A stretch of 64,000 bases of DNA from Escherichia virus TH42. The notes beneath the pieces were generated by a model, which saw only the letters and a program-made list of their open reading frames with translations, made no database searches and had not been told where the DNA came from. Position numbers and translations under genes: made by a program. Shown piece by piece: positions 8,397-63,871 of this stretch. Each line of letters starts with the position of its first letter. The first letter of the stretch is position 1. The stretch lies in sequence record MT446413.1. The stretch is one strand, 5' to 3'.

Positions 8397-8403
8397 GTCG
8401 ATG

Positions 8404-14670: not shown

Positions 14671-14689
14671 AGGAAGTCTTACGGGTTGG

Positions 14690-15031: not shown

Positions 15032-15143
15032 TACGATTGGGGCAATCCTTAAAAAGAACGTGCAACATAAGAAATCATGTCATAGGTAAATAACATGATA
15101 CAGAAAGCAATCAGGCAATGCAAAAAGTATTTATGAATCACCA

Positions 15144-15392
15144 TTAACGATCCTCGACGGTTAACAGTTCTTCCAGTGATAGACCGGATTTAACCAGCAA
15201 ATCACGATATTCGTTAGCATCCATCGGATCAAGGCCGGACAACCGGGCAATAGTCATGCGTGCATGTGCTGAAGACAAGGAAGCCAAAGCACGGATAGGA
15301 ATCAGTACAAGCCCATATTTACCGCTGATAACCAAATCACCATGCTGGATGCACATATGGGAGTTTATTACGGTTGCAAATGATTCGTTCAC
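15144..15392 (-). CDS. hypothetical protein (82 aa)
   Basis: Track ORF on block strand. Confidence 0.45.
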   Translation of the reverse strand: MNESFATVINSHMCIQHGDLVISGKYGLVLIPIRALASLSSAHARMTIARLSGLDPMDANEYRDLLVKSGLSLEELLTVEDR

Positions 15393-16285: not shown

Positions 16286-16443
16286 ACTACAGTCGCAACT
16301 ATATATTAAAGGAAAAACATGTCAACCACTTATTTTCAAACTATTTCATAACTCATTGAATCTAAAAGGAATTTAATTTACTAAACTTTCTTACTCAGAG
16401 GTACAGCTTACTAACAGAATGTTACTTTATAACGCTTATAGAA

Positions 16444-17038: not shown

Positions 17039-17233
17039 GTGCCACTGAACGCAGATAGGGCAAGGCTTAGAGCTTAAAGGCTGATTGATTTCCTAAAGGC
17101 GATTGCATTCCCTATAACCCTTTTTTAAATGAGGACTCCCCCTTTTACCAAAACACGCTCGGAGGGGCTAGGTCCACTCGGTCAAATCAGAATTTTAAAC
17201 CCTTATATATAACTATATGCCCCAACGTTAGTT

Positions 17234-17425
17234 GTGGATTTAAGAGTGAGGAACAACTTTATGTGGAAATTGAAGATGATTATCAGGCAGATTAAATGTA
17301 ATCACGAGTACTACCCAATCCGGATATCGAGAGGTGATGAACGGTTACATGCTTATTACAAGAGTACATGGAGGTGTGCAGATTGTGGTAAGGTTAAGAA
17401 TAGTAAATGGGTGGATAGGCCTTAA
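17234..17425 (+). CDS. small zinc-ribbon-like protein (63 aa)
   Basis: C..H....C..C pattern; first plus-strand ORF after the divergent region. Confidence 0.4.
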   Translation: MDLRVRNNFMWKLKMIIRQIKCNHEYYPIRISRGDERLHAYYKSTWRCADCGKVKNSKWVDRP

Positions 17426-17547
17426 CATGACATGGCCTTTATGAAGTCCCCTTTACATCAGCGTACATGGGTTCATACATGGGTGGGCCTTTAGATGAGT
17501 AAGCCTTTATGGGTTGATCACTCTCGTTTATCAGAGGAGATATAAAA

Positions 17548-17796
17548 ATGATTCTAGACTTTTTATCAGAGCTGCTTCCTTACTTCCGCACTGAAAGATG
17601 TGCATTTGTATTTGATGAAGGGGAGGAGGTATTGAGTTGTTTGGGTAGATTAGTAGACCTAGATGACGATGAAGATTTTGATGCTACGATGGATATTAGT
17701 TCATTGGGCTGGTTGTACATGAGATGCTTTGTAACCTACAAGGCTGAGACGTTTAAAGACTATCGTTATAACACGGAAGGAGAGAATGATGAATAA
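17548..17796 (+). CDS. hypothetical acidic protein (82 aa)
   Basis: Track ORF with GGAG-type RBS upstream. Confidence 0.45.
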   Translation: MILDFLSELLPYFRTERCAFVFDEGEEVLSCLGRLVDLDDDEDFDATMDISSLGWLYMRCFVTYKAETFKDYRYNTEGENDE

Positions 17797-18442
17797 TATG
17801 ACAGGAACTAATACACTGAATGCAATCTACGAGAACATGGGATGTAAAGGCGAGGTTGTTTACAATGGTAATCTCCGTCCCTTATCAGAGGACACTCTCT
17901 ATCTGAATCGTGTTCATGAAACCACTGGAGGTAAATCCCGAGTTGAGATGGTAAAACAATTGGCTCATGGTTCTGTGTATGGTCATGCTCCTTCAACCCG
18001 TGAACTATGGGAAAGTTTGATTCCTCGTACAGAAGCTAAAGATGTGAAAGATTATTTTACTGTAGCAAAAGAAGTTAAACGCAAGTGTCCATCCAATTTA
18101 GAAGTTGTTCCGTATGTATCTGACAAACATGCACACCTACCGGATTATGCCCGTGAGATGATTGAGATGATAGAAGAAGCTGAGTATGAAGCTCTGAATA
18201 ATTATTTAAATTCGAAAGATCAGTGGTCACGTAATGTAGTAATTGATGAAGAAGGTAATGAAGTAGTTACGTGGGTACATGCTAGTGAACAAGCTCTGGA
18301 CCCCGAGCTTGAAGAATACAAAAAATTTTTGGCGTCCTCTTCTTTTGATGTAGAGAATGACAAATCTGTTCCAGTGACTTGGGAAGGTGAAACTGTAGCT
18401 CTCCAGACTTTGTTCAACCTACACGTAGGTAATGTAGATTAA
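17786..18442 (+). CDS. hypothetical protein (218 aa)
   Basis: Track ORF on block strand. Confidence 0.55.
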   Translation: MMNNMTGTNTLNAIYENMGCKGEVVYNGNLRPLSEDTLYLNRVHETTGGKSRVEMVKQLAHGSVYGHAPSTRELWESLIPRTEAKDVKDYFTVAKEVKRKCPSNLEVVPYVSDKHAHLPDYAREMIEMIEEAEYEALNNYLNSKDQWSRNVVIDEEGNEVVTWVHASEQALDPELEEYKKFLASSSFDVENDKSVPVTWEGETVALQTLFNLHVGNVD

Positions 18443-18507
18443 TAAAAGGTGTTGCCTCCTCTAGTGGGAGGCTTTTTGTTATAACGATAATGTAGAAGGA
18501 GTATAAG

Positions 18508-18975
18508 ATGTTTGGAGAAAAAGGAGAACTCACGCCTGCACAGGTAGCTGAGGTTACAGGAAGATTACCCGGTGTAACTGATGAATTGGAAAACCGTGGT
18601 ATGGAGCCAAGCACAGGGAAGTTCCAAAAGGGAAATAAGTTCGGACGACCCAAAGGTAGTAGAGGTAAGTTGACACAGCTCATGTTGGACCGAGTTGCTT
18701 CAAGTCATCTGTCCCCTGATGAAGTGTTGATTCAAATTTATGAAGATCCAAATATTCCACCTGATCTTAGATTCAAGGCTGCAAGTAAAGTTGCAGATCT
18801 GGTATATCCGAAGGCAGCTTCTGTTGAGATTAAGATTGAGGAAGAGAATGTAATTAATGAAGATTCATTGAACGCACAAATCAAGGACTTCTTGGCTGGA
18901 GCATTAGGTGCAGATGTGCTACCTCCAGAGGACTCTGAGGACGCTGAAAAGGAGGAGGAAGCGGACGAGAGTTAA
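18508..18975 (+). CDS. putative terminase small subunit (155 aa)
   Basis: Position directly upstream of large terminase, size, acidic C-terminus; call rests on synteny only. Confidence 0.4.
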   Translation: MFGEKGELTPAQVAEVTGRLPGVTDELENRGMEPSTGKFQKGNKFGRPKGSRGKLTQLMLDRVASSHLSPDEVLIQIYEDPNIPPDLRFKAASKVADLVYPKAASVEIKIEEENVINEDSLNAQIKDFLAGALGADVLPPEDSEDAEKEEEADES

Positions 18976-19041
18976 TAGGAATAAAGGGGAGGGTTCTTTT
19001 CGCGAGGGATCTCTCCCTTTTCTATTTTAATTGGAGGAAAC

Positions 19042-26213: not shown

Positions 26214-26234
26214 AAGACCCTTATAAGGAGATAT

Positions 26235-26242
26235 GTAATGTA
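26235..26242 (+). promoter_or_regulatory. GTAATGTA motif (candidate promoter element)
   Basis: 43 nt upstream of ATG of 26278..27024, between terminator and RBS. Confidence 0.25.
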
Positions 26243-26277
26243 TTCTCTTTGTCTATACATAACTAGGAGGACACACT

Positions 26278-27024
26278 ATGGCAATGCCTGAAGTTCAGTA
26301 TCCTATCAATACCTATGGCTGGCTTAAAAAGGCTGTGTCACTCTGGGCCGATAGGGATGATGGTGAATTTGTAGATCAAATTCCAAACTTTATTAACTTT
26401 GCAGAGAAAGAAATCTATCGTAACTTACGAATCCCTCCTCTGGAAAAAGAAGTATATTTAGATATCAAGGATGGTATTGCTTTTATCCCTCCTGACTTTT
26501 TAGAAGCACAGTGGATTATGAGAGCTTCAAATGGAATGATGTTCAGAGTAACCTCTCCTGAAGAACTTGACTGGTTGAAGAGAAATAACTCAGTCAACCC
26601 ATCCAATTGGAATCAAGGGGAAGTTGTTTTTGCTCGTTTAGGTAGTCGGTTTATGTTCTACCCTCTAATTGATGCAGATACTCCTGTTTATCCTGATGAT
26701 GGAGCACCTGAAATCCCTGCTGAGAATGCTGTAGTTTTAAGTTATTATGCAGACCCACCGGAGTTCCACTCTGATGAAGATACCAGTGCTATTCTAACTA
26801 TTGCTCCTGAGCTGCTTCTATATTTTACTCTGCGTCATGCTTCTTTATTCGTTCAAGATGATAATGGAGTTCAAAAGTGGTCAGCACTTGGTAAAGCAAT
26901 CCTTGACGAGATTGTGGAGCAGAGTAAGAAAGCAGAATACTCAGGTTCCCCTCTAGTAATCCCTAATACTATTAGCCGTCTTAATAGCTCACGAGAAGTG
27001 TACGGCATTCGTAGATACAGATAA
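26278..27024 (+). CDS. virion structural protein (248 aa)
   Basis: Position between capsid and tail-fibre genes; strong RBS. Confidence 0.5.
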   Translation: MAMPEVQYPINTYGWLKKAVSLWADRDDGEFVDQIPNFINFAEKEIYRNLRIPPLEKEVYLDIKDGIAFIPPDFLEAQWIMRASNGMMFRVTSPEELDWLKRNNSVNPSNWNQGEVVFARLGSRFMFYPLIDADTPVYPDDGAPEIPAENAVVLSYYADPPEFHSDEDTSAILTIAPELLLYFTLRHASLFVQDDNGVQKWSALGKAILDEIVEQSKKAEYSGSPLVIPNTISRLNSSREVYGIRRYR

Positions 27025-33547: not shown

Positions 33548-36500
33548 ATGGCTCTCTATCCAATTAAATCACTAGGCGCAGTTGGGGTTATCGCTGACCA
33601 AGCACCTACTGACTTAGCACCAAATGCTTTCACTAACGCTATTAATGCTCGGTTTGTTGAGCAGAGGGTCTTTAAGACGGGGGGCAATGCCCCTCTTTCT
33701 TATGTAGACGAAGATAAAGATCTGACTCCTCTCTCATTCCTTTCAATGCCTTTCGACTATTATAGCGCAGGTAATAGCTTTCTTGTGGTAGGTACAGATA
33801 AGAAACTGTATAAACTTACCGACGAGAGTTTAACTGATATCAGCCGTAAGGTTGCTACAGCGACAAAGAAAGCATCAGCGACAATTAAGATTTATCCAGT
33901 AGTCTCAAATATTGTTCCTAAAGAGACTTCTGTATCTATGAATTTTAACCAGACCAAGATTCTCGAAGTTGAAGTCACCCCTACAGATGCTCAAAATGCT
34001 AATCTAGTTTGGGAAGTAAGCAACTCTTCTTACGGCAGTATTGAAGTTGACCCTACTGACTCCAAGAAGGCTACCCTAACTTCTAAGTCTGTTGAAGGTA
34101 ATTTAGTTGTGACAGTGAGCACATCTGATGAATCTATCTCAGCTCAGATTGCAGTTAATATCATTGATGGTGATTCAGGTATCTATTTGAGCCAAGACAC
34201 TTTGACTATGCGTAAAGGTGGTACATCAACCCTTACAGCAATTACAGGCAAACCGTCTGTAACTTGGTCTTCCTCTAACCCATCGTTAGTTTCTGTTTCT
34301 CCTAATGCTAATACAAAGACAGTTGTTCTTACAGCTCTTGGAGAAGGACAGGTAACTATAACTGCTGATAATGAGACAAAGACTGCATCTTGTATAGTAA
34401 CAGCAATACCTCAAATTGATAGCATCACATTAAGTCAGACAGATATTCAAATGAGCCGTGGTACTCAGTACATCCTAACTGCAACAGTTAGTCCAGCTAA
34501 CGCACCCAACCAAACAATCACTTGGACTTCTTCTAATACCAACATTGCTACAGTAAGTGGTACAGGTACAGAAGCTACAATAACTGGATTGCTTGCAGGG
34601 TATACAGAGATTACAGCAGTTACAGCGGAAGGAGGTCGTTCAGCAGTTTGTACTGTACGTGTTGATTTATCTTCTCGTCTGGCAAGTAGGGCTATGTCAG
34701 CAATGACTATCACTACAGAAGCTCCTGTAGAAGAACCAATGGTTGGCTCAGAAGAGGTAACATACTTCGACACTGATAACATTGGTATTGATACGACAGG
34801 AATGGCAGAAGGGAATAACTTCTACGACTACTCTAACGTCATGGACTTGGAAGGTTTTGGTAGAGCAGCAATGCTTGCTAATGATCCACCTTTGACTGGA
34901 GTTACTCTTGATGTTATTGATGCCTCTCTTGATGTAGGTGAAGAGATTGTTATCACAGCTACAGCATCTCCTACTGGAAGCTATACTTACAAGTGGACAG
35001 TTGATAAGAGTGGTTATGTTTCTACTACTTCTACAACTGACTCAACTTTGAAACTTACTGCTATTCGTAAGGGTGAGGTTAAAGTGACTTGTACTGTAAG
35101 CCAGATGGTTCAGAAAGACTATGATGCGTTTGAAGATTATCCTTGGTATCATGCGATCATCTCTAACTGTGCAGTAGCAACTACTCACTACGAAACTCCT
35201 CAGGTTAAGGAATTCGATTCTGAATACTTCACTGATCTTCCGGGATGGGGTGAGCAGACGGTTGTTGATGCAGATGGTAATCCTTCTGTTAAGAAGTATA
35301 ACTGGAAATGTGAACGAGTGAGAGCTTTTAACAATAGACTGTTTGCTCTGAATATGAGAGAGTCTAATGCCTCTGGTGTTACTACTCACTACCCTCTTCG
35401 TTTGCGTTGGTCTAACTTTGCAGAGGAAAACAAAGCCCCTCAGCTTTGGGATGATTATGCATATGACCGAGCAGTGAGTTCTGACCTAGCAGCTAACATC
35501 GTAGGACAGACAGAAGCTCTTGAGAATGGTTATGCAGGATATATTGATTTGGCTGACTCTAATGGTAGTTTGTTAGATGTTCTTCCTCTGAAAGATTATC
35601 TGTTCGTTTACACTGAGTTTGAAACTTATATCGGCTCTCCTACCAACAACACCTATCAGCCTTTGATGTTTAAAAAGCTGTTTAACGATTCAGGAATACT
35701 TGCTCCTGAGTGTGTGGTGGAAGTTGAAGGTGGTCACTTTGTGGTAACTCAGAACGACGTCATTCTACACAATGGTGCTTCTAAGAAATCTATTGCTTCT
35801 AACCGAGTGAAGAACATGCTCATTAATGAGATTTGTCTGGTGAACCCAATTGCTACACGAGTTCATCTTCATCAGGATAAGAAAGAAGTATGGGTTCTTT
35901 ATGTAGGTCCGGGTGAGCCTAAGGAAAGTTTTGCCTGTACTAAAGCAGCAGTATGGAATTATGAGTTCGACACTTGGTCTTTCCGTACGATTCCTTATTC
36001 TTATTGTATCGGTCTTGTTGATCCTCCGGTTCTGGAACGCGGTCCTATCTGGGCTGATTTCCAAGAGATCACTTGGGATGACCCTTCGATTGACAAACTG
36101 GTGTGGAGAAAAGATGCAACTAACTTCCGTCAGCGAGTTACAATCATAGGTTCTTTCTTGAAAGGATTCTACCAAGTTGATATAGGAGCTTTGGATTATA
36201 TCTATGACAGAACAAACGATGTGGTTATAGAGAAGCCTCTGGAAATGAGACTAGAGAGAACGGGGATTGATTTTGATAACGTCACTAATGAATGGAATCA
36301 GAAACACATTAACCGATTTAGACCTCAAGTAACAGGAACGGGGACTTATACTTTTGAAGCAGGTGGTAGTCAATTCTCTAATGAGTATGGACACAACCAC
36401 TCTACTAAAGAGTTTAGGGTTGGTGTGGATCGTCACGTAGCAGTCAGACTGAACCATCCATACCTATTCTATAATGTTATAGATAATGATGTTAACAGTA

Positions 36501-41512: not shown

Positions 41513-43144
41513 ATGCAACAAACATCTTACGCGTATCTTCGTAGTCAAGACCCGCGAAATCAGATTTATGGTGATCGTCAGAGAGGGGTTACGGCCTCTC
41601 CTTACATGTCCAGACCTGCTGGTCCAGCAGCTGACTTATCTATGTATCAGCGTCCAGCTCTTCCTGCTGTCTTAGGAGCTACAGTTGAACAAGCACAGGC
41701 TGACCAAGAAGCTATGATGAATCCGGGATTCAAGCAACGTCTTTATGAACAGCAGGGTATTTCCACTCCTACTAGTTTGGCTGGTATTGATGCTGGCATT
41801 AATCCGGGTGATGAAGGCTCTATGATGCCTGCTGATGTAGCTCCTGCTTCTAGCCCTCTTCCGGTTACAGCTCCTGCTAAACCAATTGAAGAGTCGGATA
41901 AAGAGTTTGCCCCTGAACAAGTACAACAGGCACAAGGTGTCATGAATACTATCGCTTCTGGTGTTCCTCAGGGTGAAGGTATGAGTGGTGCTACTCGTGC
42001 TGCTGACCAAGAACGTGTGAATCAGGATATTCTTAAAGTTGCACAATCTAAGAACCCGGCAGATGCGTGGAAGACTATGCAGAAACAGCCTTTCTATCAA
42101 AACTCTAGTTTCTATACAGGATTGATGGGTGTGGGTCTTTCTATTATGTCTGGTAAATCTCCGATTGAAGCATTCCAGATTGGCTCTGGTATGGCATCTC
42201 AGGATGAAGCTAAACAACAATTAGAACTGAACCGTGATAACCTGATCGAACAAGGTTACTCTCAGGATTCTGTAGCTGCTGCTGTAGCTGCTGGTGACCC
42301 TTCTCTTCTGAAGATGCGTCAGATTAGTCCTCAAGAGAAGATGGCTCTAGCCGCTCAAGATGAAGCTCGTGCTAATCAAGAGTGGGATAGACGTCAACAG
42401 ATTCAAGAGAATTCGATGCGGGAACGTGCTGCTGAAACCCGTCGTGCTGCTGAACAACGTGCTGATGCTCAGTTTGAGAAGCAGAAAGAGTTGATTGGTT
42501 ATCGTGATCAAGTTAAGGCAGACCGTGCAGAACAAGCTGCTCAAAGTTTTAACTTTAACCCGAAAGAAGTTCGTCTTGCTCAGAACACTGCTGAAGGTAC
42601 GGTTGCTAAGCAATGGGCAGAGAAGGCAGGACTGTTTAACCAGTCTCATAAAGACTTGGATTTGGCAGACAAAGCAGTTAAGGATGGTGATTATCAGACT
42701 GCTCGTTCTGCGTACATGCAGGCTATCATGAACTCCGCGAGAGCTGAGATTGGTGCTAACCGTTCTCTGCAAGCTGATGACTTGTCACACTTCGCAGAAG
42801 ACCCATCCATTCTTGTTAAGGTAGGTAACACTTGGTCTCTTAAAGCTGGTTATCGTCCATCCGATGCCGCTCTTTCCTATGCCCGTAAGCAAGCAACTGT
42901 TGGTGCTTCTTCTGCTGAGAAAGGTGTTAAGGATTCTAAGAAAGCAACTATTGAAGCTTATGTTGGTTCTGGTATGGACAAGAAACGTGCAACTGCTCTT
43001 GTTAACCGAGCTATTCCTTCTGCTGGTTTCTATGACCCTCTCGGTGTATTCGAAGCAGAGTCTGAAGCAGCTGTTGGTGGTTCAGCAACCAATCCTAAAC
43101 TTAATGGTGCTTTGTCTTCTAACACTGATTGGATGACTCAGTAA
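41513..43144 (+). CDS. virion protein (543 aa)
   Basis: Track ORF with RBS, module position. Confidence 0.5.
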   Translation: MQQTSYAYLRSQDPRNQIYGDRQRGVTASPYMSRPAGPAADLSMYQRPALPAVLGATVEQAQADQEAMMNPGFKQRLYEQQGISTPTSLAGIDAGINPGDEGSMMPADVAPASSPLPVTAPAKPIEESDKEFAPEQVQQAQGVMNTIASGVPQGEGMSGATRAADQERVNQDILKVAQSKNPADAWKTMQKQPFYQNSSFYTGLMGVGLSIMSGKSPIEAFQIGSGMASQDEAKQQLELNRDNLIEQGYSQDSVAAAVAAGDPSLLKMRQISPQEKMALAAQDEARANQEWDRRQQIQENSMRERAAETRRAAEQRADAQFEKQKELIGYRDQVKADRAEQAAQSFNFNPKEVRLAQNTAEGTVAKQWAEKAGLFNQSHKDLDLADKAVKDGDYQTARSAYMQAIMNSARAEIGANRSLQADDLSHFAEDPSILVKVGNTWSLKAGYRPSDAALSYARKQATVGASSAEKGVKDSKKATIEAYVGSGMDKKRATALVNRAIPSAGFYDPLGVFEAESEAAVGGSATNPKLNGALSSNTDWMTQ

Positions 43145-43164
43145 GACCTAAGTCCTATCTCTTA

Positions 43165-43172
43165 TAATGTAT
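43165..43172 (+). promoter_or_regulatory. ATAATGTA motif (candidate promoter element)
   Basis: 45 nt upstream of ATG of the 1472-aa gene. Confidence 0.25.
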
Positions 43173-43209
43173 ATAGGAGGTAGGACATTTTTATTTATAA
43201 GGAGAAATT

Positions 43210-46200
43210 ATGGCTAACTTAAAACCGTGGGAAGAAGCTTCTAAAAGCCCTGCGTATTTGAATGCCTCCCCTGAGCAACAGTCTCAGATGCGAGAACAGT
43301 ATAAAGCAGCGGGTGGAACGATTCCTGAGGCTGCTCCAGCTCCTAAACAAGAAGAGCAACCGGGGTTGGTTGGTGATTTTGCCCAAGGTGTGTCCAACGC
43401 TATTCAATCAGGTGGTGCAAACATTGCAGCTAGTGCTGCTAGAGGTATTGGTGGATTAGTTGAGATTGGAGAAAATCTAGCTGGTACACAGACAAGTTAT
43501 GGTAAGCGTATTCAAGACAACTCTAAAAACTTACTAGAAGAACGTCTTTCTCAAATCGAAGATGGTGTAGGTAAATCTGTAGGTCAGTATGCTGGCGTTG
43601 CCGCTGATATCGGTCTTACGGTCGCTAACCCAGCTGTAGCTGCTGCTGTTATTGCAGCTCGTGAAACAGGTAGGGCTTATGCGGACCAAACTCCAGAAGA
43701 GGGTGAAGAGAAGTCTGTTCTTGATGCTGGTCTAGTTGGTGGTGCTAACTTTGCAGCTCAGAAGATTCTTCCGGGGATGACAGGAACTGCTTCTACTACT
43801 CTAGGTCGTGTTGGTCAGAGTGTAGCATCTAACGCAGTGGCTGGTGCTAAAGGTGGTGCTCTTGTAGGTGCTGCTGAAGCACAGAACAAATATGGTGATG
43901 ACACTACTCTTGCTAACATTATTGAAGGTGCTGTAGAAGAAGGTGCGATGGGTGCTGCTTACGGTGGGGCTATCGGTGGGGTTCATGGATTGATAAGTCG
44001 TCCTAGTCCTCAAGTCTTTGACCGTACTCCAGAACACGTTAAGACTGACATTGCCGCTGAAGATGAAGCTATTCGCTCAGCTAAAAATGCAGACGAACTA
44101 AGAGAGGCTTACTCTAAAGCTGATAACGCTAACACAGCTTCCGCTCTTAACCTCCTCGATGAGAACGGTTTCCGTGTTACTGATGCTGTGGCTATGGACT
44201 CCCCTGCTGCTCAGCGTATCCTTAATACTGATCAAAGTCGTGCTGAGAAGGCTGCTACTATTCTGGAAGATCGTTCTAATGTTCCGGGTTTAAATCCTCT
44301 TGCTGCTCCTAATAAAAAGCAAGGTAAAGCTAACGCAGACAACGAACATAACCAGAAACAAGCTGTGGCAATGAAAGATGCAATGGCTGATTATACAAAA
44401 GACAACACTAAATCTCTGTCTGATGTTCTGGATAATCTTGATCGTGAATTAACAGCTGCTCGTGCCAGTGGTGATTTTACTGGTAGTGCTATGGACATTA
44501 AGAATCGTACCCAAGCAGATCGTGATTTCATTGATGCTTATAAAACTTTCTATAACGAAGCTAATCGATTCAAAGCTCGTGATGGTGAAGACTTTAATAA
44601 CTTCATAGAGAAAGCTACAGAGCTTCAGAAACTGGCTGATAATGTATCTCCAGAAATGAAAACTGCTATTGGTGGTTTGAAGAAACTTAAAGGAATGCCT
44701 GAAGGTTTCAACCCAATCCAAGATGCTTTCACTCTGAATAATACAGCTAAGTTAATGAGTAATCAAGACCGTGGTTGGACTTCTCTGACTGCTGATGGTT
44801 TTAAAGAAGCTGCTCCTCCAGTTCTGATTAAGAATCCTCTTGGTGCTGCTAAGCATGTTCTTAACCGTTTCCGTTCTGACCGTGCTCGCTCTCAACGCGA
44901 AAGCCAGCAGGCTGCTAACAGTGAAGCTATTCGTTCTCTTGCTCGTAGTGATATGGAAGTAACTCGTGCTCGTGCTCAGGCTGATGAAGCCCGTGCTGCG
45001 ATGGAGAAAGAACCTGAAGTTGATGACATTAAATTTAAGACTCAAAATGACACGGAAATCGAACCGGTTCGGGAGCCTTCTGCTACTACTGTGACGGAAG
45101 AAATTTCCTCTCCAGAAACCTCTCCTTTAACTGCTCGTGATTTGGTCGCACAGAGACGTGCTTTGAAGGAAGCTGAAGCTAGACGTCAAGAAGCCGAAGC
45201 TAATAAGGTTCAGGAAGAACCAACTCCAGAGCCAGTTCCACAAGAACCAGTTACTACCGCAAGGGATTTAGTTGCCCAGCGTCGTGCTGTTGCAGAAGCT
45301 CGTAAACGTCAAGAAGCAGAAGAGGCTAGCAAGGCTGCTGAGAGCGTTCCTGAGGAGCCTACCGTTCAAGCCGAGCCATTACCTACCCGTGCTCCTAAAG
45401 CTCCTGAGATTGAGCCTGAGCCTGTTAAACCAGCTACTGGAATAGAACGTCTAGCTGCTATGTCAAGTGCTGCCCGTCAAGCTACTAAAGATCGTGCAGA
45501 TCGCTTTGCTCGTTCCCTGTATACGGCAGGTGCTAAGGCTAAAGCCACAGCGGAGAATTTCCTTTCTTATAAAGGTGACCCGAAAGAGTTGATGCGTCGT
45601 ATCCGTCAGGAAGACCAAGCTAACAACGCTGAACGTCATGCTGAGATGGCTCGTAACCAGCTTGCTTCTCAACAGGGTATTGCTGCTGCTAAGTCACAAC
45701 GTGTTCGTTCTTCGTTTGCTGATTGGGTTAAGGAACGTGGTCTACCTTCTGATATTGCTACCAAGGCATTACGTGCTGAGGAGAAAGGTATTGGTGGGAA
45801 CGTGACTAGTCTGGATTCACTGAAGCGTAGGTCTGAACGTCTGTATCAGAAACAGCGCGATGATGAATTTAACAAGATGTATGAAGAAGCTCTTGCAGAG
45901 AATAAGAAGCTTGATAAAGCTGATGCTCCTAAACTGGTTGACCAGAAGAAAGAGTTACACAGCGAAATCAATTTACTTCTTGATGCAGAGCCATTACGTC
46001 CAGCTCAAAAAGATGCTATGCGTAAGTTGATGGAAGACTTTGTAGATGGGAAGTTTAAAGCTTCAGAGAAGGCTGGAAGGGAAGATGCTTTGGAAGTGGG
46101 ACAGATGAAGGATATATGGGATGGATTCATTAACACATATAACCGTGAAGTTAACATGTTCAACAAAGCTAATAAGAACTCTCAGTACGAAGCAGCAGCT

Positions 46201-47628
46201 AAACATTTGCAAGCACGTCAAGAACGTCTTGAGACGCTCCGTAACAGAGCTAAAGCTCGTAGTGATGCCAAGGCAGCAATAGAGACAGAAAGACAGTCTC
46301 TCGAGGCTATAGCGGCTCAGAAATCGGAGATGGAGAACCTGTTGAAAGATTTACCAGAGTCGGTACGTGAGTCTCAGGAAGGTCGTACACTGAAACAGTT
46401 AGCAGCTCACCACGATAAGAACTCTCCTGTACCACCGGAGCGTTTCCGTAGTATTATCGAACGTATCCACAACGCAGAAAGTGATTACATTGACCGTAAG
46501 CGTCGTCTCACTGAAGCGGAAGAAGATGCTCGAGAAGCTAAGTGGAATAAGATGTATGAACAGGCGGAAGAGATGAACCGTAAATACGACATTGATTCCC
46601 GTGTACAACGTGACAAGAAGCTCAAAGAAGCTCAGGAAGCAGAGAACGATCGCATGGCAATACAACGCCAACGTGATGACATTCATAAGCGCCTGATGCG
46701 TTCTATGGAGGATAAAGGGATTCCTAAAGAAGATGCAGAAATCTTTGCAGGTTCTTATATGGATAACCGTTACTCTCTTCTGGAGAAACCTATGACTCCT
46801 ACTGAGCACCAGAATGCTCGTTCTCGTATTGAATCGGATATTTCAAAGTTTGCTAAGGATTTTGAGAAGATGACACCAATCGAGAAAGATATTGCTAAGG
46901 CAACTGGTGATATGGATGGGAAGGTAGAGGTGGATGCAGACACTTCGAAAGCTATCGAAGATGCGAAGAAGGTAGATTCTGAGTTGAAGAAACTTCAGGA
47001 TGAGGAGTTGGAAATGGAGAAAGTTCGTTCGGCATTGCCAGAAGATGAAAGATCTCAAGCCTCCTCTGATATACTGGAAAGCATTAAGAAGCAGGAAGAT
47101 GACTTTGCTAACAAAGCAGAGAAAGCTTTTATCGAAGGTAAAGACTTGCAGGAACTGGCTAGTGTAGCAGAGGTTCTAGATAGAGTTCATGGTGCTGACA
47201 AGGCTGGTAACAACCGTCGCTTTGTACGTGCATTACAAACTGCTGCGGAGAACAAGAAACAGTATGGGGATAATCCAGTGGCTTGGTTTAGTGCTGATGA
47301 CTATTCTGCTATTGCTAAACTTGGGGCTGCTTCAGCGGGTGGTAACAAATCTAGAGCACTGGAGAAAATCTTTGGTTCTACTGCTGAACAAGCTAAAGGG
47401 AAACTTTTAGGGCGGGATGATGTAGCGAAGATTAGACGTGTGATTGAAGAGAATCCTGATGTTAAGATCCCTTCTTACAAGACAACTACTCGACAAGAGT
47501 ATTTACAGTTCTTGGAGAAGTATAATGACGAGGGAGAGTTGAAAGTCAAACGTGGTTCTCTGTCTGACAAGTTGGAGAGAAGTAAGCGTCAAGCTAAACT
47601 CCGTGTTAGAGTTCGAGCTAAGGAGTAA
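43210..47628 (+). CDS. very large helical virion protein (1472 aa)
   Basis: Longest ORF in window; Gly/Ala-rich N-terminus then E/K/R/A-rich helical sequence; internal peptide repeat TARDLVAQRRA(L/V) twice. Confidence 0.6.
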   Translation: MANLKPWEEASKSPAYLNASPEQQSQMREQYKAAGGTIPEAAPAPKQEEQPGLVGDFAQGVSNAIQSGGANIAASAARGIGGLVEIGENLAGTQTSYGKRIQDNSKNLLEERLSQIEDGVGKSVGQYAGVAADIGLTVANPAVAAAVIAARETGRAYADQTPEEGEEKSVLDAGLVGGANFAAQKILPGMTGTASTTLGRVGQSVASNAVAGAKGGALVGAAEAQNKYGDDTTLANIIEGAVEEGAMGAAYGGAIGGVHGLISRPSPQVFDRTPEHVKTDIAAEDEAIRSAKNADELREAYSKADNANTASALNLLDENGFRVTDAVAMDSPAAQRILNTDQSRAEKAATILEDRSNVPGLNPLAAPNKKQGKANADNEHNQKQAVAMKDAMADYTKDNTKSLSDVLDNLDRELTAARASGDFTGSAMDIKNRTQADRDFIDAYKTFYNEANRFKARDGEDFNNFIEKATELQKLADNVSPEMKTAIGGLKKLKGMPEGFNPIQDAFTLNNTAKLMSNQDRGWTSLTADGFKEAAPPVLIKNPLGAAKHVLNRFRSDRARSQRESQQAANSEAIRSLARSDMEVTRARAQADEARAAMEKEPEVDDIKFKTQNDTEIEPVREPSATTVTEEISSPETSPLTARDLVAQRRALKEAEARRQEAEANKVQEEPTPEPVPQEPVTTARDLVAQRRAVAEARKRQEAEEASKAAESVPEEPTVQAEPLPTRAPKAPEIEPEPVKPATGIERLAAMSSAARQATKDRADRFARSLYTAGAKAKATAENFLSYKGDPKELMRRIRQEDQANNAERHAEMARNQLASQQGIAAAKSQRVRSSFADWVKERGLPSDIATKALRAEEKGIGGNVTSLDSLKRRSERLYQKQRDDEFNKMYEEALAENKKLDKADAPKLVDQKKELHSEINLLLDAEPLRPAQKDAMRKLMEDFVDGKFKASEKAGREDALEVGQMKDIWDGFINTYNREVNMFNKANKNSQYEAAAKHLQARQERLETLRNRAKARSDAKAAIETERQSLEAIAAQKSEMENLLKDLPESVRESQEGRTLKQLAAHHDKNSPVPPERFRSIIERIHNAESDYIDRKRRLTEAEEDAREAKWNKMYEQAEEMNRKYDIDSRVQRDKKLKEAQEAENDRMAIQRQRDDIHKRLMRSMEDKGIPKEDAEIFAGSYMDNRYSLLEKPMTPTEHQNARSRIESDISKFAKDFEKMTPIEKDIAKATGDMDGKVEVDADTSKAIEDAKKVDSELKKLQDEELEMEKVRSALPEDERSQASSDILESIKKQEDDFANKAEKAFIEGKDLQELASVAEVLDRVHGADKAGNNRRFVRALQTAAENKKQYGDNPVAWFSADDYSAIAKLGAASAGGNKSRALEKIFGSTAEQAKGKLLGRDDVAKIRRVIEENPDVKIPSYKTTTRQEYLQFLEKYNDEGELKVKRGSLSDKLERSKRQAKLRVRVRAKE

Positions 47629-48641: not shown

Positions 48642-49487
48642 TTATTCCCAAGATTTATCTAACCACGACCAATCAAAGAGGTCGCCTTCAGCTTGTCCAA
48701 CGAAGAGCAATCGAGCATTTTCTAACATCTTAGCTTCTGCTTCTTCCTCGAACCTCTTATAGTATTCCATTCGTATAATATGATAAAGAGTCCACTTATC
48801 GAATACCTTCTCAATAAGTTTGATAGCAGCTTTGCTACCAATACCCTTACGACGCATAACTAAGTTACCGCCCCACATCATTTCAACTTTCTCACCACAT
48901 CCGGGGATGTTATCTGTACTGTCTCCAATCAACATCTGATAGAAGAAGTTCTGCCATGCTACTTCCTCTGATACGTAATGAGGGGGTACTTCTTTCTGTC
49001 GTTCACCGCAAGCCCAGCGGTAATGCCATCCGGGAGTGATTAACAAATCCTTATCACGAGTACAGATGATTGTGTTCTTTTCTATACGCTGTCGTTCAGC
49101 GAGTGCATCATCTGCTTCTCTACCAAACACCTCAACGTACTGATAATGTTCTTTGATGTAATCACTAACGTTCTGCCAGTGATGTGGTCTTTCTCCCGGA
49201 GGTCGGTTAGCTTTGTAACCTTGTTGCTGAGCAATATCAAATCGGAAGTTACCACCTTCACTAAAATAGAAGACAGTTCTTTCACAACCAGCTCTTGAGA
49301 TGATTACATCAATCTTATGTTGGAGACGTTCAATCAAGAATCCATAATCAACTGGAACACGACCTGTGTCTAGGAAAGGATGCTCTTGTGTAAGAGCACC
49401 AACTTCATACCTAAGAACATCTGCATCCACAATTGCTACTTCAGGATAGATTACATCAGGCATAGAGATCTCTCCGTGTCTGTGCAA
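48642..49487 (-). CDS. 5'-3' exonuclease / flap endonuclease
   Basis: GREADDALAERQ, TRDKDL and GDSTDNIPG motifs typical of the Pol I 5'-exonuclease/FEN family. Confidence 0.75.
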   Translation of the reverse strand: MHRHGEISMPDVIYPEVAIVDADVLRYEVGALTQEHPFLDTGRVPVDYGFLIERLQHKIDVIISRAGCERTVFYFSEGGNFRFDIAQQQGYKANRPPGERPHHWQNVSDYIKEHYQYVEVFGREADDALAERQRIEKNTIICTRDKDLLITPGWHYRWACGERQKEVPPHYVSEEVAWQNFFYQMLIGDSTDNIPGCGEKVEMMWGGNLVMRRKGIGSKAAIKLIEKVFDKWTLYHIIRMEYYKRFEEEAEAKMLENARLLFVGQAEGDLFDWSWLDKSWE

Positions 49488-50052
49488 TACTGTATTCTAA
49501 ATACTCCACCGCCTCTTCTACAGAACAATCATTAAAGAGAAGGTAGGTTGAAAGGTTCGCGCCTTCAATATAGGAACGAGAGTCTCCTTCAAAAGTACAG
49601 CCATCACGATGAATCTGAATTACTCGAACATGGAAATGTTTTTCCAGTTCTTCAACTTCTGCTTTAAATCCACCATCAGAGAATACAATAACATCATTCT
49701 GTGTTGGGATGCGTTGTTGAATACTGCTAACAGCAAGCTTACCCATGCAGGTGTCACCAAACATTGGTTTCAGGTAGTTCTCACTAGTCGCAATCATTAA
49801 ATCTCGAACTGTCTTACCGCCCCATTCAGGACGGCTATATTCTTTCCACTCACGGTCGTTGTATAGCTCCATGAACTCATAAAGAGGAAGTCCTAATGCA
49901 GCAGCAGCCACTCGATACATAGGCTCCTTAAAAGCCTTTACATGCGGTCTAAACTCAGTGTTACCGACGGTCTTCTCTAACCAAGCATTAGCGATTGTAT
50001 CTTTACCACAACCCGGTGGTCCATTCAGAATTACTACTAACGGTTTACTCAT
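49456..50052 (-). CDS. P-loop kinase, putative (deoxy)nucleotide kinase
   Basis: Walker A GPPGCGKDT at residues 11-19; about 200 aa. Confidence 0.5.
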   Translation of the reverse strand: MSKPLVVILNGPPGCGKDTIANAWLEKTVGNTEFRPHVKAFKEPMYRVAAAALGLPLYEFMELYNDREWKEYSRPEWGGKTVRDLMIATSENYLKPMFGDTCMGKLAVSSIQQRIPTQNDVIVFSDGGFKAEVEELEKHFHVRVIQIHRDGCTFEGDSRSYIEGANLSTYLLFNDCSVEEAVEYLEYSIAQTRRDLYA

Positions 50053-50702
50053 TATTGAATCATCCCTTGAAGATCTTCTTTATCAAAGTGCTTCTCTACT
50101 ACAGCTTCATACAGATCACGATTCTCTGCATAACGGCGATAGAAGGTTCCGTGTGAAATTCCTAACTGCTGCTGAATATGATCATGAGGAATTCCAAGGA
50201 AGAGCATAGAGAACATGCTTGCCATTTTCTTGGTATCCATAATATCACTTAAGTCTTGGAAGAAGAAAAAGATTCTAGATTCCAAGAAGGGGTCTCCAGT
50301 AGAGTCATGCTTATCCATCGCAATCTCTAAAGGACTTTCCCATGAGTTCATCTCAGGAGGTCTAAACATATCAGCCTCTGGAATAGAGTAGATACGTCGA
50401 TCTCCAACTGTCTGACGGTTAGAACGAATAGACCAGATGATATTCTTAACACGATAAGTCATGTGTTCAATATCTTTTTCATCAGTGAGCAGAAGTTCTT
50501 CTTGCTTTGCAAACACAAAACGCCAAGCGTTCAGTAACACTTCCTGAGCAACATCCTCTGCTTCGTGATAATCTTTAATGTCATACATGAAATAGCGATG
50601 CACAACTTTCCAGTTCTCTCGATAGAATTCATCGAAGGTTGGATAATATTTAATAGGAATGCCATGAATACGATAGCGTGTGGGTGTTGTCTTCTTCTTC
50701 AT
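50052..50702 (-). CDS. ECF-like RNA polymerase sigma factor (putative)
   Basis: [13 protein letters not shown] resembles sigma region 2; C-terminal [23 protein letters not shown] resembles region 4 HTH. Confidence 0.5.
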
Positions 50703-50726
50703 AAGTCGTCCTTAACTTACTTTGTA

Positions 50727-50951
50727 TTAAACTACACAGAACAAATACATTGCTGTGTCAGGACAAGGGATGGCTGTCTGAATACCACTTACCTTAATCC
50801 ACATATCTTCTTCAGGGTCGTAATAGGCCCAATAGGATTGATCTCCATCTACAAAGAATTTAAAAGTTCGTCCCCAAACCTGATTATTATATTCCCATAC
50901 TGCATGAAGTTGAGTAACACCTTCTGGTATTGTAAGTTCCGCTCTGATCAT
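50727..50951 (-). CDS. hypothetical protein (74 aa)
   Basis: Track ORF; 4-nt overlap with upstream gene. Confidence 0.4.
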   Translation of the reverse strand: MIRAELTIPEGVTQLHAVWEYNNQVWGRTFKFFVDGDQSYWAYYDPEEDMWIKVSGIQTAIPCPDTAMYLFCVV

Positions 50952-51208
50952 TGTATTCCTCTCTCCTTGAGAGCTTTCAGTAAACCATTATGGTTAGCAG
51001 CACAGGTTGTGTAGTTGTCCTGATACCACTCTAATGTTGTTGCAAATGCCGCTCCCTGTGCACTCTGAAGCAAAGGGAGATCAACATCACACTCAGCTTT
51101 TAGGTTTGTTGGTAAGGGCATTAGCTGCCTGCTGTTGTCGCTCGTTGAACAAGCTGACATACTCATCGCTAGCGCACACATTGTAAAAAACTGGCTTAGT
51201 CTTCTCAT
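50948..51208 (-). CDS. outer-membrane spanin (Rz1-like lipoprotein), putative
   Basis: ATG at 51208; signal peptide with Cys at position 20 (MSAC), Pro-rich mature part; start lies inside the i-spanin gene in another frame. Confidence 0.45.
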   Translation of the reverse strand: MRRLSQFFTMCALAMSMSACSTSDNSRQLMPLPTNLKAECDVDLPLLQSAQGAAFATTLEWYQDNYTTCAANHNGLLKALKERGIQ

Positions 51209-51440
51209 AATGCATCTCTTTGTAAACAGTTTCCGTGTTCTTCTTCCAGTTAGTTAAACTGGTTAGAACTTTCTTAGCTACTTCATCAGCAGCCTTAGCT
51301 CTCTCAATCTCAATCTCTTGTTGTTTCTTCTCTTGGTCAAGAGTGTTACTATCATTTCGATATTGTTCAAACTTCATTCCGCCAAAGAATACAAGAGCTG
51401 TAAAGACTAAGAAGCCGATATTGTTTTGAAGCTTTTCCAT
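51093..51440 (-). CDS. inner-membrane spanin (Rz-like), putative
   Basis: Track ORF starts at a GTG (51464) inside the upstream terminator; the ATG at 51440 with GGAG RBS is the likely start; N-terminal TM segment then coiled-coil. Confidence 0.5.
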   Translation of the reverse strand: MEKLQNNIGFLVFTALVFFGGMKFEQYRNDSNTLDQEKKQQEIEIERAKAADEVAKKVLTSLTNWKKNTETVYKEMHYEKTKPVFYNVCASDEYVSLFNERQQQAANALTNKPKS

Positions 51441-51452
51441 TTTAACTCCAAC

Positions 51453-51476
51453 GAAAAAAGCCACCCGAAGGTGGCT
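51453..51476 (-). terminator. rho-independent terminator
   Basis: Perfect AGCCACC-CGAA-GGTGGCT hairpin with A6 on plus strand; between SSB-like gene and i-spanin. Confidence 0.7.
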
Positions 51477-51499
51477 AAGCTATTACAAGGAGAGATTCA

Positions 51500-52240
51500 T
51501 TAGAAAGGGCTGTCATCTTCTTCAAAGGTAGATTGAGGCTCTTCATTAATAGTAGGGATACTTGGAGTCGCGTCTTTCTGTTCAGTGTCAGAAGCGCGAG
51601 TAACTTCACGACCAGCCAGAGGGATGTTTTTAGCATCATTAGCTTGGGTCAGAAGGTTACGTTGGAATGGAAACATAGCTTGATAAGCAGCCAAGTTAGC
51701 GTCAGTTTCAGCATACGGTTCGAAGAAGATCAACTCACTACGAGGAGCACCTACAGCATCACGATACTTAGTTGGGATTGGAGTGATGCTCTTGATAGAG
51801 TTTTTCTTCTCACCAGCTTTGTTGGTGTAAGAGTTAACCAGAATGTTGACAGGCTGACCAAGCAGCATATCTTTGAACCAACCCAAATCACCTTTCAGTG
51901 CTTGAACACTTGGGTCGATCATTTTAATTAGGTTCAGAATACCAGAGTTCTTAGCTCGTGGGTTTACATCGAAGGATTTAAACTGACAAGCAGGACGTGG
52001 GTCCAATGCCTTACCATCATTATCTGTACCAGTTGCGTCAACACCAATCAGTTCAAATGCCAAGTCCATACGGAAAGCTGGGTTCTTAGGAGTAACTGCT
52101 TTGGTCTTAGGGTCAATCCAAGGGTCACGATTGTGAACACCTAAACCTACTACACGAACAATGCGTGCTTCGTACTCGCCATCAGGGATTACATCGTAGT
52201 TGGATTTACGGGATACAGACAGTTCAGGGATCATAGACAT
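51500..52240 (-). CDS. single-stranded DNA-binding protein (putative)
   Basis: 246 aa ending in acidic tail EEDDSPF, like the SSB C-terminal motif DDDIPF; call rests mainly on this tail. Confidence 0.45.
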   Translation of the reverse strand: MSMIPELSVSRKSNYDVIPDGEYEARIVRVVGLGVHNRDPWIDPKTKAVTPKNPAFRMDLAFELIGVDATGTDNDGKALDPRPACQFKSFDVNPRAKNSGILNLIKMIDPSVQALKGDLGWFKDMLLGQPVNILVNSYTNKAGEKKNSIKSITPIPTKYRDAVGAPRSELIFFEPYAETDANLAAYQAMFPFQRNLLTQANDAKNIPLAGREVTRASDTEQKDATPSIPTINEEPQSTFEEDDSPF

Positions 52241-52301
52241 ATTAATATTTCCTTATATAAATTTAAGATTGTTGCTCTCTTTGAGCGGTTGGTATACTAT
52301 A

Positions 52302-52309
52302 TACATTAC
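52302..52309 (-). promoter_or_regulatory. GTAATGTA motif (candidate promoter element)
   Basis: Minus-sense motif 62 nt upstream of the SSB-like gene ATG; same 10-mer ATACATTACA at 10991-11000. Confidence 0.25.
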
Positions 52310-52561
52310 ACCTATACAGATAAGGTTCTATTATACTATAACCTTTTTGGTAGTAGATAACAGTAAGTAGTAATGTATATATTGTATAGCTAGTAAAGCT
52401 ATTGCAGGCTTGTATATTGGGCAATCATCGTAACCCTTGCAAGTACCGAAGGGCAGGAGACACCTGCGAGATAAAAATAGAGAATTAAGGAAACCCTTGA
52501 TTTAGGTTGAGGACTCCTAGGACTTTGATTCTCTATTAAAATCAAAAGAAAACTAATTAAC

Positions 52562-53140
52562 TTACCATTCAATAAACTGATTTAGATTAGTATACTTAAC
52601 TTCTCTCTGAAATTGAAGATTAGATTCTCTCTGTTTAGCAAGAAGGTTAAGTTCTTCTTCCTTTCTTTTCTCAAACTCTTTTCTAATCTCTTGCAGAGAT
52701 ACAGCTCTATAATCAATTTGTTCCATAGAAGTACAAAAATATCTCCAATCTCTGATAGTAGAATTATGAGTATGAGCATAGATATTATATCTTCCTCTCA
52801 TTTCATCAGAGTGAATAGGAATATGAGTTACCCAAAACTCTTTGTATTTATAATCACCACTGATGTGTCTAAAGATTTTCATCATATCAGGGAGAAGTTC
52901 TAATCTGTCATGGTTTCCTAGGACAAGATGTTTCTCTCCTTTTACTTCAGCGATAATATCAAGTGCGTATTTCTCAAACACCCAATCACCTGTAAAGAAA
53001 GTTTTATCGCGTTTAGTAACATGGTCAAAAGCTGCTAGGATAGCTTTGTCGTGTTCTTCAATACTGCTAAACTTCTTTCTAAAATTACAGATGTTACGAT
53101 GGCCTAGGTGACCATCACCTGCAAAATAAACTTCAGCCAT
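52562..53140 (-). CDS. calcineurin-like metallophosphoesterase
   Basis: GDGHLGH, GDWV, LGNHD and AHTHN motifs in canonical order. Confidence 0.7.
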   Translation of the reverse strand: MAEVYFAGDGHLGHRNICNFRKKFSSIEEHDKAILAAFDHVTKRDKTFFTGDWVFEKYALDIIAEVKGEKHLVLGNHDRLELLPDMMKIFRHISGDYKYKEFWVTHIPIHSDEMRGRYNIYAHTHNSTIRDWRYFCTSMEQIDYRAVSLQEIRKEFEKRKEEELNLLAKQRESNLQFQREVKYTNLNQFIEW

Positions 53141-53300
53141 TCTCGTACGTGTCCTCGTAATATGAGTAGTTGAAGGATTCAGCTTTCGTTTCAGCCTCCT
53201 CCCTATCGTCTGTTTCCAGAATCACTCTCCAGCCAGAACCTTCAGGATATTCAGCCCCTTCGTCTAGCCAGACTTTAAACCTTTTAGATAGTACAACCAT
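53133..53300 (-). CDS. hypothetical acidic protein
   Basis: Track ORF 53133..53369 trimmed to internal Met to reduce overlap with 53284..53484. Confidence 0.35.
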   Translation of the reverse strand: MVVLSKRFKVWLDEGAEYPEGSGWRVILETDDREEAETKAESFNYSYYEDTYENG

Positions 53301-57940: not shown

Positions 57941-58433
57941 AACTTGAGCTTAAAGCATGTCGGATAGCTGTGTGACTTACGCCAAACATCTTACCTAGTG
58001 CTCTTGTTCCATGAGTGGTAGAGCCTTTAACATATAAACTCTTGATCTTCTCCACATCCAATGTGTTGATTTTAGTCATTCCATTAGCATCCCTCTCTTT
58101 ACCAACATTAAGACCTGTTGAAAAAGCATGTTGCATATTTTCATGACCAGTGACCCACTCTAGGTTCTCTAACCTATTATCACTTTTGTTACCATTGATG
58201 TGGTTAATTTGTGGTTTATTTTCAGGGTTAGGTATGAGCACAGAAGCTATAAGTCTGTGAGCTTTCCATCTCCTCCCTTCAAAGTAAACTCTGATATACC
58301 CTTTTTCATCAACAGCCCCTGCCACTTTTCCCGGATGTGATTTATTCCATTTCTTACCTTTAGAGCTAGATTCGGTAAAAATCAATAAACCAGTATCCAG
58401 GTCGTATGACAAGTAGTCGGAAATCGGAATCAT
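57939..58433 (-). CDS. HNH endonuclease (putative homing endonuclease)
   Basis: NHINGNKSDNRLENLEWVTGHENMQHA is a canonical HNH motif. Confidence 0.6.
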   Translation of the reverse strand: MIPISDYLSYDLDTGLLIFTESSSKGKKWNKSHPGKVAGAVDEKGYIRVYFEGRRWKAHRLIASVLIPNPENKPQINHINGNKSDNRLENLEWVTGHENMQHAFSTGLNVGKERDANGMTKINTLDVEKIKSLYVKGSTTHGTRALGKMFGVSHTAIRHALSSS

Positions 58434-58753
58434 TGACTTAGAGCGCCTTTTCTCGATTTGACTCCTCCTGCTGATTTTCCAGCACGATCTCCACTTTTGC
58501 CGCCGTTCGAGCGATTTCCAGAGACTGATTCAACACGTAAGTTACTTGACGCATTAGAACCTCCCGACTTGATTGATCGTTTATGTCCAACATCTTTACC
58601 TCGGACAGCAGCTTTTCCATCGCGCTTTTCAACGATGCGACGTGCACGGTGGCGCTGAGCATCTCCGCTCTTGCTACCAACGCCGGTTTCACCCCTTGCG
58701 ATTGCAGTTCTTCGTTCTTGTGCATAATCACGTTTTGCCTTATCAGTCATCAT
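58430..58753 (-). CDS. hypothetical basic Gly/Arg/Lys-rich protein (frame ambiguous)
   Basis: Start-stop coupled to HNH gene, but 58438..58731 in another frame gives a more ordinary composition; which frame is coding cannot be decided by eye. Confidence 0.3.
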   Translation of the reverse strand: MMTDKAKRDYAQERRTAIARGETGVGSKSGDAQRHRARRIVEKRDGKAAVRGKDVGHKRSIKSGGSNASSNLRVESVSGNRSNGGKSGDRAGKSAGGVKSRKGALSQ

Positions 58754-58797
58754 AACTCCTTAATATATCAGTGTACACTAAGGAGTATACATTATGT

Positions 58798-63819: not shown

Positions 63820-63871
63820 ACAATATTCTTATACTGTATATACATTTGAGAGTTATCATATCTACTACCAA

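Follow-up and report, generated by a model that had tools for sequence, protein, structure and literature searches.

A gp36-type sigma factor gene and its conserved promoter elements in Escherichia virus TH42

We analyzed a stretch of 64,000 nucleotides (the window) from Escherichia virus TH42 (sequence record MT446413.1), in which the gene at 50052-50702 almost certainly encodes the phage's own sigma subunit, an ortholog of phiEco32 gp36 that would redirect host RNA polymerase (RNAP) to the middle and late genes. A first-pass annotation, made from the letters of the window without database searches, had proposed a sigma factor resembling the extracytoplasmic function (ECF) group, through which the phage sends host RNAP to its own genes, and this proposal is supported by orthology with gp36, by conservation of the functional residues, and by the presence of cognate promoters. 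The sigma factor is of a known kind, with genetic, biochemical, and structural work on the gp36/gp79 system published from 2008 to 2025, and nothing about it is biologically new. The finding matters in that a highly divergent sigma factor was recognized correctly from raw sequence, although it falls short of the standard Pfam and NCBIfam thresholds, and its practical value lies in the annotation of sister-phage records, where the gene is often still labelled "hypothetical protein."

The sigma gene and its protein

As judged from its sequence, the window comes from a Suseptimavirus-like, phiEco32-like coliphage of the ECBP2/Bas88/TH34 group. A megablast search with positions 49000-52000 returned 98 phage records, nearly all of them Escherichia phages, the closest being TH34 (98.3%), StefiGeyer_Bas88 (hereafter Bas88; 97.2%), ECBP2 (95.1%), and SU7 (88.7%). 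ECBP2 and SU7 belong to the genus Suseptimavirus of the Gordonclarkvirinae, and phiEco32 (genus Kuravirus) shows 77% nucleotide identity genome-wide. Positions 1-19041 of the window correspond to Bas88 58235-76606 and are followed by the equivalent of Bas88 1 to about 46000; therefore, about 12 kb of the genome lies outside the window.

The open reading frame (ORF) of 216 amino acids (aa) for which the first-pass annotation stated no strand is real and lies on the minus strand (Table 1), and the segment that had been quoted as region-2-like corresponds to residues 48-60 of the protein. Its stop codon shares TAATG with the ATG of the downstream deoxynucleoside monophosphate (dNMP) kinase gene. 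This is not a chance ORF, because the protein is 100% identical to Bas88_0026, labelled "RNA polymerase sigma factor" in Bas88, because tblastn found homologs across 98 phage records (one protein per record, 81-99% identity, including phi32_36 of phiEco32), and because the ratio of nonsynonymous to synonymous substitution rates (dN/dS) is 0.08 against phiEco32 and 0.05 against SU7.

The protein matched chain F of PDB entry 9m7y ("RNA polymerase ECF sigma factor") over its full length, with 81% identity over 214 residues (expectation value [E] 4.9e-119), and also matched PHROG 1740, "RNA polymerase sigma factor" (E 2.9e-44). Entry 9M7Y is the cryo-electron microscopy (cryo-EM) structure of the gp79-dependent open complex formed by E. 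coli RNAP and phiEco32 gp36 (PMC12276001). In phiEco32, gp36 was found on RNAP purified from infected cells, the gp36 holoenzyme transcribes the middle and late promoters in vitro, and gp36 binds E. coli RNAP in the manner of a two-domain sigma-2/sigma-4 factor, as seen by cryo-EM (PMC12276001).

The published structure and mutagenesis assign functions to individual gp36 residues (PMC12276001). The sigma-2-like N-terminal domain (residues 1-103) binds the clamp helices via D44, E47, E49, D50, and E54 and reads the -10 region via E79, H80, Y83, R84, W90, S91, S94, and N95, and the linker runs through the cleft of the active center. The C-terminal domain (residues 138-214) is sigma-4-like with a shorter helix 4; it contacts the flap-tip helix through M138, I142, F166, L167, and F204, touches -37G and -34A through R187 and Y186, with A-34 contacted by Y186, and receives helix 1 of gp79 on F146, M164, L167, and I169. 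When these 23 distinct residues were mapped onto the window protein, 22 were identical, including all those that contact bases or form the gp79 groove, and the flap-tip-helix groove differed by one conservative change alone, M138 to L140.

An AlphaFold2 model built from a 20-sequence alignment (mean predicted local distance difference test [pLDDT] score of 77) consists of two helical domains and a disordered, low-confidence linker. The top Foldseek match against the PDB was 9m7y_F (E 3e-21), and the further matches were almost all ECF sigma factors (SigE, SigL, SigH, AlgU, RpoE, SigK, SigW, and BldN). The isolated sigma-4 domain of SigL (3hug) was matched with template modeling (TM) scores of 0.56-0.59, while whole-chain TM scores were low because the domain arrangement differs. 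A structural comparison with ECF sigma factors had been suggested in the first-pass annotation, and the model contains both the sigma-2 and the sigma-4 fold; as sigma hits and sigma folds were both found, the sigma reading stands.

The family to which the protein belongs is narrow, with 20 clusters reaching down to 43% identity in a search of 5.8 billion proteins. Sigma70_r2 is weakly matched by 15 of the 20 members and Sigma70_r4_2 by a single one (E 0.0036), and residues 21-63 of the window protein show a weak likeness to regions 2.1/2.2 of cellular ECF sigma factors.

Cognate promoters, partner protein, and competing explanations

The gp36 promoters of phiEco32 carry the consensus tAATGTAtA, located 6-8 nt 5' of the start site, and six have been listed: P6 (TAATGTAgA), P13, and P26, which are late, and P40, P58, and P68 (aAATGTATA), which are middle (PMC8948821, Table S3). 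P68 was the promoter used in the gp36 cryo-EM structure, and P26 is transcribed in vitro by the gp36 holoenzyme (PMC12276001). In the window, TAATGTAT occurs 8 times, compared with 2.7 expected from shuffles, and six sites are intergenic, correctly oriented, and located just 5' of genes, at positions orthologous to P6, P13, P26, P40, P58, and P68. A scan of phiEco32 returned the same six positions, and the sequence variants agreed as well. Across the window and phiEco32 sites, A is found at -34 in 14/14 and G at -37 in 7/14. Since the six sites are conserved in both position and sequence, the target set of the sigma factor is conserved along with the protein. On these sequences, the gp36-type promoter is a single strong -10-like 9-mer (-15 to -7) with weak -35 contacts, rather than a bipartite promoter of the ECF type.

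Further features were observed around these promoters. The late P13 and P26 have a common TAAGAC(C) at about -38 to -32 (26214-26220 and 43143-43149, plus strand), also present in phiEco32, and P68 shares TTGGTAG at the corresponding place with a seventh, opposite-strand site described below (63863-63869, minus strand; 52349-52355, plus strand); these may be class-specific upstream elements of the late and middle promoters, respectively. The P6-type promoter lies directly 3' of a terminator-like hairpin, GCCTCCTCTAGTGGGAGGC followed by T5 (hairpin and promoter together at about 18454-18496, plus strand), with its -37 to -33 region inside the 3' arm, and the arrangement is the same in phiEco32. 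Downstream of the P26-type promoter, the gp26 ortholog (43210-47628, plus strand) is the largest ORF of the window; its 1472-aa product belongs to a PHROG of unknown function and has no Pfam domain.

Among more distant relatives, a metagenomic locus with a 65% identical sigma factor (L008) has two divergent TAATGTATT elements 5' of its gp40-like gene, and no TAATGTAT was found upstream of the gp40-like gene in locus L007 (7440-7660), which encodes the 54% identical sigma factor P0017. P0012-P0014, P0016, P0017, and P0020, which belong to the more divergent part of the family, have N in place of H80, the residue that contacts -11G. This replacement and the lack of TAATGTAT at L007 suggest that promoter specificity may have drifted in distant relatives.

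By analogy with its ortholog, the window protein would bind RNAP, initiate transcription at specific promoters, and depend on gp79. It would be made as a middle-gene product and would bind the E. coli RNAP core in place of sigma-70, with the N-terminal sigma-2-like domain on the beta' clamp helices recognizing and melting tAATGTAtA, centered near -11.5, with the linker running through the active-site cleft, and with the C-terminal sigma-4-like domain, which is compact, seated on the flap-tip helix of beta and touching the -35 region (A-34, often G-37). The holoenzyme would transcribe the middle (replication, nucleotide metabolism) and late (virion, lysis) genes from the six promoters, all of which lie within the window. 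In phiEco32, gp36 does not work alone: the small protein gp79 binds the clamp, drives region 4 of sigma-70 out of the RNA exit channel, and then docks on the C-terminal domain of gp36, which stabilizes the open complex (PMC12276001).

The first-pass statement that the window holds no single-subunit phage RNA polymerase was borne out by a domain check of the nine ORFs of at least 400 aa. These encode terminase, portal, and tail proteins, a family-A DNA polymerase, and three unknowns in conserved PHROGs, and none contains an RNA polymerase domain. The annotated remainder of the Bas88 genome does not encode a phage RNA polymerase either.

No observation speaks against a gp36-like function of this gene, although several set limits to the assignment. 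In the profile searches, Pfam Sigma70_r2 matched residues 26-61 with E 5e-4 and 20.3 bits, short of its cut-off of 24, the NCBIfam model TIGR02937 for sigma70-ECF reached 21.2 bits against 42.9, and no region-4 model of Pfam or NCBIfam (Sigma70_r4, r4_2) matched the protein. The linker departs from that of gp36 by a 2-aa insertion (N119 S120) and several substitutions, and the differences from gp36 concentrate there. No gp79 homolog was found in the window by tblastn (best E 0.085). The terminator-like hairpin at 51459-51476, which is kept in phiEco32 with a TCCG loop, separates the P40-type promoter from the sigma gene, and a minus-strand consensus scan of 500 nt revealed no convincing sigma-70 promoter just upstream of the gene.

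The search against sigma-70 profiles proposed in the first-pass annotation therefore gave a sub-threshold match for region 2 and no match for region 4. Its region-2-like segment retains a profile signal that scores under the curated cut-off, and its C-terminal region-4-like helix-turn-helix (HTH) is invisible to sequence profiles, but both the solved ortholog structure and the predicted model show a sigma-4-like fold there. The gp79 gene was probably not found because it lies in the approximately 12-kb part of the genome outside the window. In ECBP2, it is located ~20.5 kb from the sigma gene, which would correspond to a position near 71 kb in window coordinates, past the window end. Bas88, whose sigma factor is identical, has a syntenic gp79 ortholog of 80 aa at 51353-51595, within the segment that the window lacks, beside the S6 glutaminyl transferase gene; it is 80% identical and keeps the hydrophobic N-terminal helix (L6 to I, L9, V10 to I, M14). 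Homologs of gp79 are present in 97 phage records, compared with 98 for the sigma factor, and we expect that the partner is present in this phage too, encoded outside the window.

Among other explanations, the one that survives best, although very unlikely, is a gp36-type sigma factor whose promoter specificity or partner dependence is altered with respect to phiEco32 gp36. The 19% of residues that differ, the 2-aa linker insertion, the M138 to L change, a P13-type site that reads TAATGTATT and not TAATGTATA, and the L6 to I and V10 to I changes in a nearest-relative gp79 ortholog that is only 80% identical would all fit such a shift, but the base-contacting and gp79-groove residues are all identical, the same 9-mer stands at all six orthologous promoters, and every site has A at -34.

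An ordinary TetR-like HTH DNA-binding regulator that is not an RNAP subunit has almost no probability left. The C-terminal HTH does resemble TetR_N (E 0.22) and TetR-family structures (E 0.21, or E 0.018 with the family profile), but none of these matches reaches significance (for TetR_N, 11.8 bits where the cut-off is 24), they span only about 40 residues, and they place the HTH at the C-terminus of the protein and not at the N-terminus. Moreover, fold searches return sigma factors first, and the full-length ortholog is the sigma subunit of a cryo-EM open complex, a structure that effectively refutes the TetR-like regulator, which we rejected. A decaying or non-functional copy of a sigma gene, for which we found no supporting point, is equally improbable, as the full-length frame is unbroken and preceded by a ribosome-binding site, dN/dS is 0.05-0.08, an independent isolate with 97% identical DNA in the region encodes an identical protein, and the sigma factor is within the core proteome of the phage group (PMC9965538).

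Table 1. Positions of the sigma gene, its domains, and associated elements in the window
Feature	Positions	Strand	Remarks
Sigma factor gene, phiEco32 gene 36 ortholog	50052..50702	minus	216 aa + stop; ATG at 50702, TAA ending at 50052
Ribosome-binding site AAGGA	50709..50713	minus	6 nt 5' of the sigma gene ATG; read directly from the sequence
N-terminal sigma-2-like domain, residues 1-103	50394..50702	minus	Predicted clamp-helix binding and -10 recognition/melting
Inter-domain linker, sigma-3.2-like, residues 104-139	50286..50393	minus	From alignment with gp36; pLDDT 52-65, lowest in the model
C-terminal sigma-4-like domain, residues 140-216	50055..50285	minus	Predicted flap-tip-helix binding, -35 contacts, and gp79 docking groove
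P6-type late element TAATGTAGA	18488..18496	plus	Followed by aggagtataagATG; phiEco32 1677(+), same variant TAATGTAgA
P13-type late element TAATGTATT	26236..26244	plus	Intergenic, 34 nt 5' of ORF 26278-27024; phiEco32 9101(+)
P26-type late element TAATGTATA	43165..43173	plus	Intergenic, 37 nt 5' of gp26 ortholog 43210-47628; phiEco32 26014(+)
P40-type middle element TAATGTATA	52300..52308	minus	Intergenic, 60 nt 5' of gp40 ortholog 51500-52240; phiEco32 36640(-); A at -34
P58-type middle element TAATGTATA	58786..58794	minus	Intergenic, 33 nt 5' of ORF 58430-58753; phiEco32 42945(-)
P68-type middle element AAATGTATA	63839..63847	minus	Upstream TTGGTAG with G-37 and A-34
Seventh gp36-type element TAATGTATA	52371..52379	plus	Strand opposite to the surrounding genes; upstream TTGGTAGTAGATA
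Terminator-like hairpin AGCCACC-TTCG-GGTGGCT, then T6	51459..51476	minus	Separates the gp40 ortholog from the spanin gene

Surroundings of the sigma gene and a seventh element

The gene order around the sigma gene (gp40 ortholog, spanin, small ORFs, sigma, dNMP kinase, exonuclease, HNH) agrees with that of Bas88, SU7, and phiEco32, and the P40-type element lies upstream of the gene string leading to the sigma gene. Given the terminator-like hairpin between the two, sigma expression from P40 would need read-through. For phiEco32 gene 36, a sigma-70 promoter has been predicted inside gene 37. In the window, the candidate ATGAGA-17-TACAAT (51208-51180, 9/12) was rejected as chance-level, the region having 11 sites compared with 6.3 +/- 2.3 in shuffles. 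The P40-type element is preceded, about 18 nt upstream, by a TATAAT with a poor -35, as has been described for phage SU10. Read-through of upstream co-oriented early and middle transcription probably supplies the first sigma molecules, and the weak TATAAT beside P40 could be an alternative source.

The surroundings of the sigma gene in the window lack two genes found in phiEco32 (33777-35768), namely gene 35, with a GTP-binding domain, and gene 37, with a macro / Appr-1-p processing domain. In their place, 50703-51464 holds a 74-aa ORF (50727-50951, PHROG 30479) and an 86-aa o-spanin-like ORF (50948-51208). No anti-sigma factor gene adjoins the sigma gene, whose neighbors are the spanin genes, the 74-aa unknown ORF, and the dNMP kinase and exonuclease genes. 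The gp40 ortholog (51500-52240, minus strand) is a 246-aa protein of PHROG 6599, of unknown function and without a Pfam match, which ends in an acidic tail (...FEEDDSPF) and has its own gp36-type promoter and terminator. The C-terminal tip of the bacterial single-stranded-DNA-binding protein (SSB) is DDDIPF, and based on the SSB-like acidic tail and on the dedicated promoter and terminator, the gp40 ortholog may be the SSB of the phage.

The seventh gp36-type element lies in the 320-nt spacer 52241-52561, divergent from the P40-type promoter. Its upstream sequence TTGGTAGTAGATA is the same as that of P68, with TTGGTAG at -39 to -33, including G-37 and A-34. The element is kept in phiEco32 (36704, plus strand), SU7, and Bas88, a divergent pair is also found in the metagenomic locus L008, and it is absent from the six published gp36 promoters (PMC8948821, Table S3). 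On its 3' side, a stretch of ~160 nt (within 52345-52545) is matched in 98/98 phage records, where it is unannotated and non-coding. This stretch is 89% identical to phiEco32, compared with 77% genome-wide, and holds several hairpins; its RNA folding scores (z = -2.1 for the plus strand and -1.3 for the minus strand) are modest and unconvincing either way. The sole Rfam result over 51400-53200, a sub-threshold snoRNA match, was rejected. An antisense transcript in phiEco32 was not mentioned in the literature searched, a search that did not include the primary 2012 study.

We consider it conceivable, if on balance doubtful, that the putative promoter at 52371-52379 is an undescribed member of the gp36-type sigma regulon. 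If the promoter is active, the phage sigma factor would use it, in the middle of the replication module, to make a non-coding or antisense small RNA or to activate a replication origin by transcription. The conserved opposite-strand element and the non-coding stretch beside P40 are the only possibly new item in this work.

Comparison with known systems

T4 AsiA/MotA, T4 gp55, and SPO1 gp28 and gp33/34 follow the same strategy, in which host RNAP is temporally reprogrammed by small phage proteins, although T4 middle transcription remodels sigma-70 and does not replace it. No sequence relationship was detected between the window protein and the sigma systems of T4 and SPO1. In the gp36 system, gp79 has been likened to T4 AsiA, and gp36 gives the sequence specificity (PMC12276001).

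Cellular ECF sigma factors (M. tuberculosis SigE/SigL/SigH, E. coli RpoE, and P. aeruginosa AlgU) resemble the window protein in having sigma-2 and sigma-4 without regions 1.1 and 3, and they are, together with isolated sigma-2 or sigma-4 domains, its best non-self structural matches. ECF promoters have conserved -35 "AAC" and -10 "CGT"-like elements, and ECF sigma genes typically, but not universally, have an adjacent co-transcribed anti-sigma gene. In contrast to this bipartite -35/-10 architecture, the promoters of the window have one 9-mer with only A-34 invariant upstream and no AAC motif, and where an adjacent anti-sigma factor is typical of ECF systems, the gp36 system uses the co-activator gp79 instead. 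The structures also differ, as alpha1 of gp36 is rotated by about 70 degrees, the C-terminal alpha4 is shorter, and the flap-tip helix has a different orientation (PMC12276001). The window protein therefore agrees with the ECF group in architecture and fold, and departs from it in sequence thresholds, promoter type, and the adjacent anti-sigma gene; the first-pass label "ECF-like" is a fair description of its shape, but it does not amount to a family assignment by sequence, since the scores are sub-threshold and the promoter is not of the ECF type.

Salmonella phage 7-11 gp47, the late sigma factor of the 7-11 subgroup, belongs to a genome of related architecture and also sends host RNAP to late promoters, which occupy similar positions in the genome, but it is ~15% identical to gp36 and uses a bipartite GTAAtg-(16)-aCTA promoter, and phage 7-11 is without a gp79 homolog, host shut-off, or a middle class (PMC8948821). 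The closest described system is phiEco32 gp36, an 81% identical full-length ortholog with the same two-domain architecture, contact residues, six promoter positions, and location in the middle-gene cluster. The window protein differs from it in the 2-aa linker insertion, the linker substitutions, and M138 to L140, and the phages differ in the flanking genes 35 and 37, absent here, and in genus (Kuravirus versus Suseptimavirus-like). The sigma factors of ECBP2, SU7, Bas86-88, and TH34 are 97-100% identical proteins at the same locus and represent the same gene with essentially no difference. Taken together, full-length similarity, contact residues, promoters, and synteny all agree in identifying the window protein, at the level of sequence, as a member of the gp36 family (PHROG 1740).

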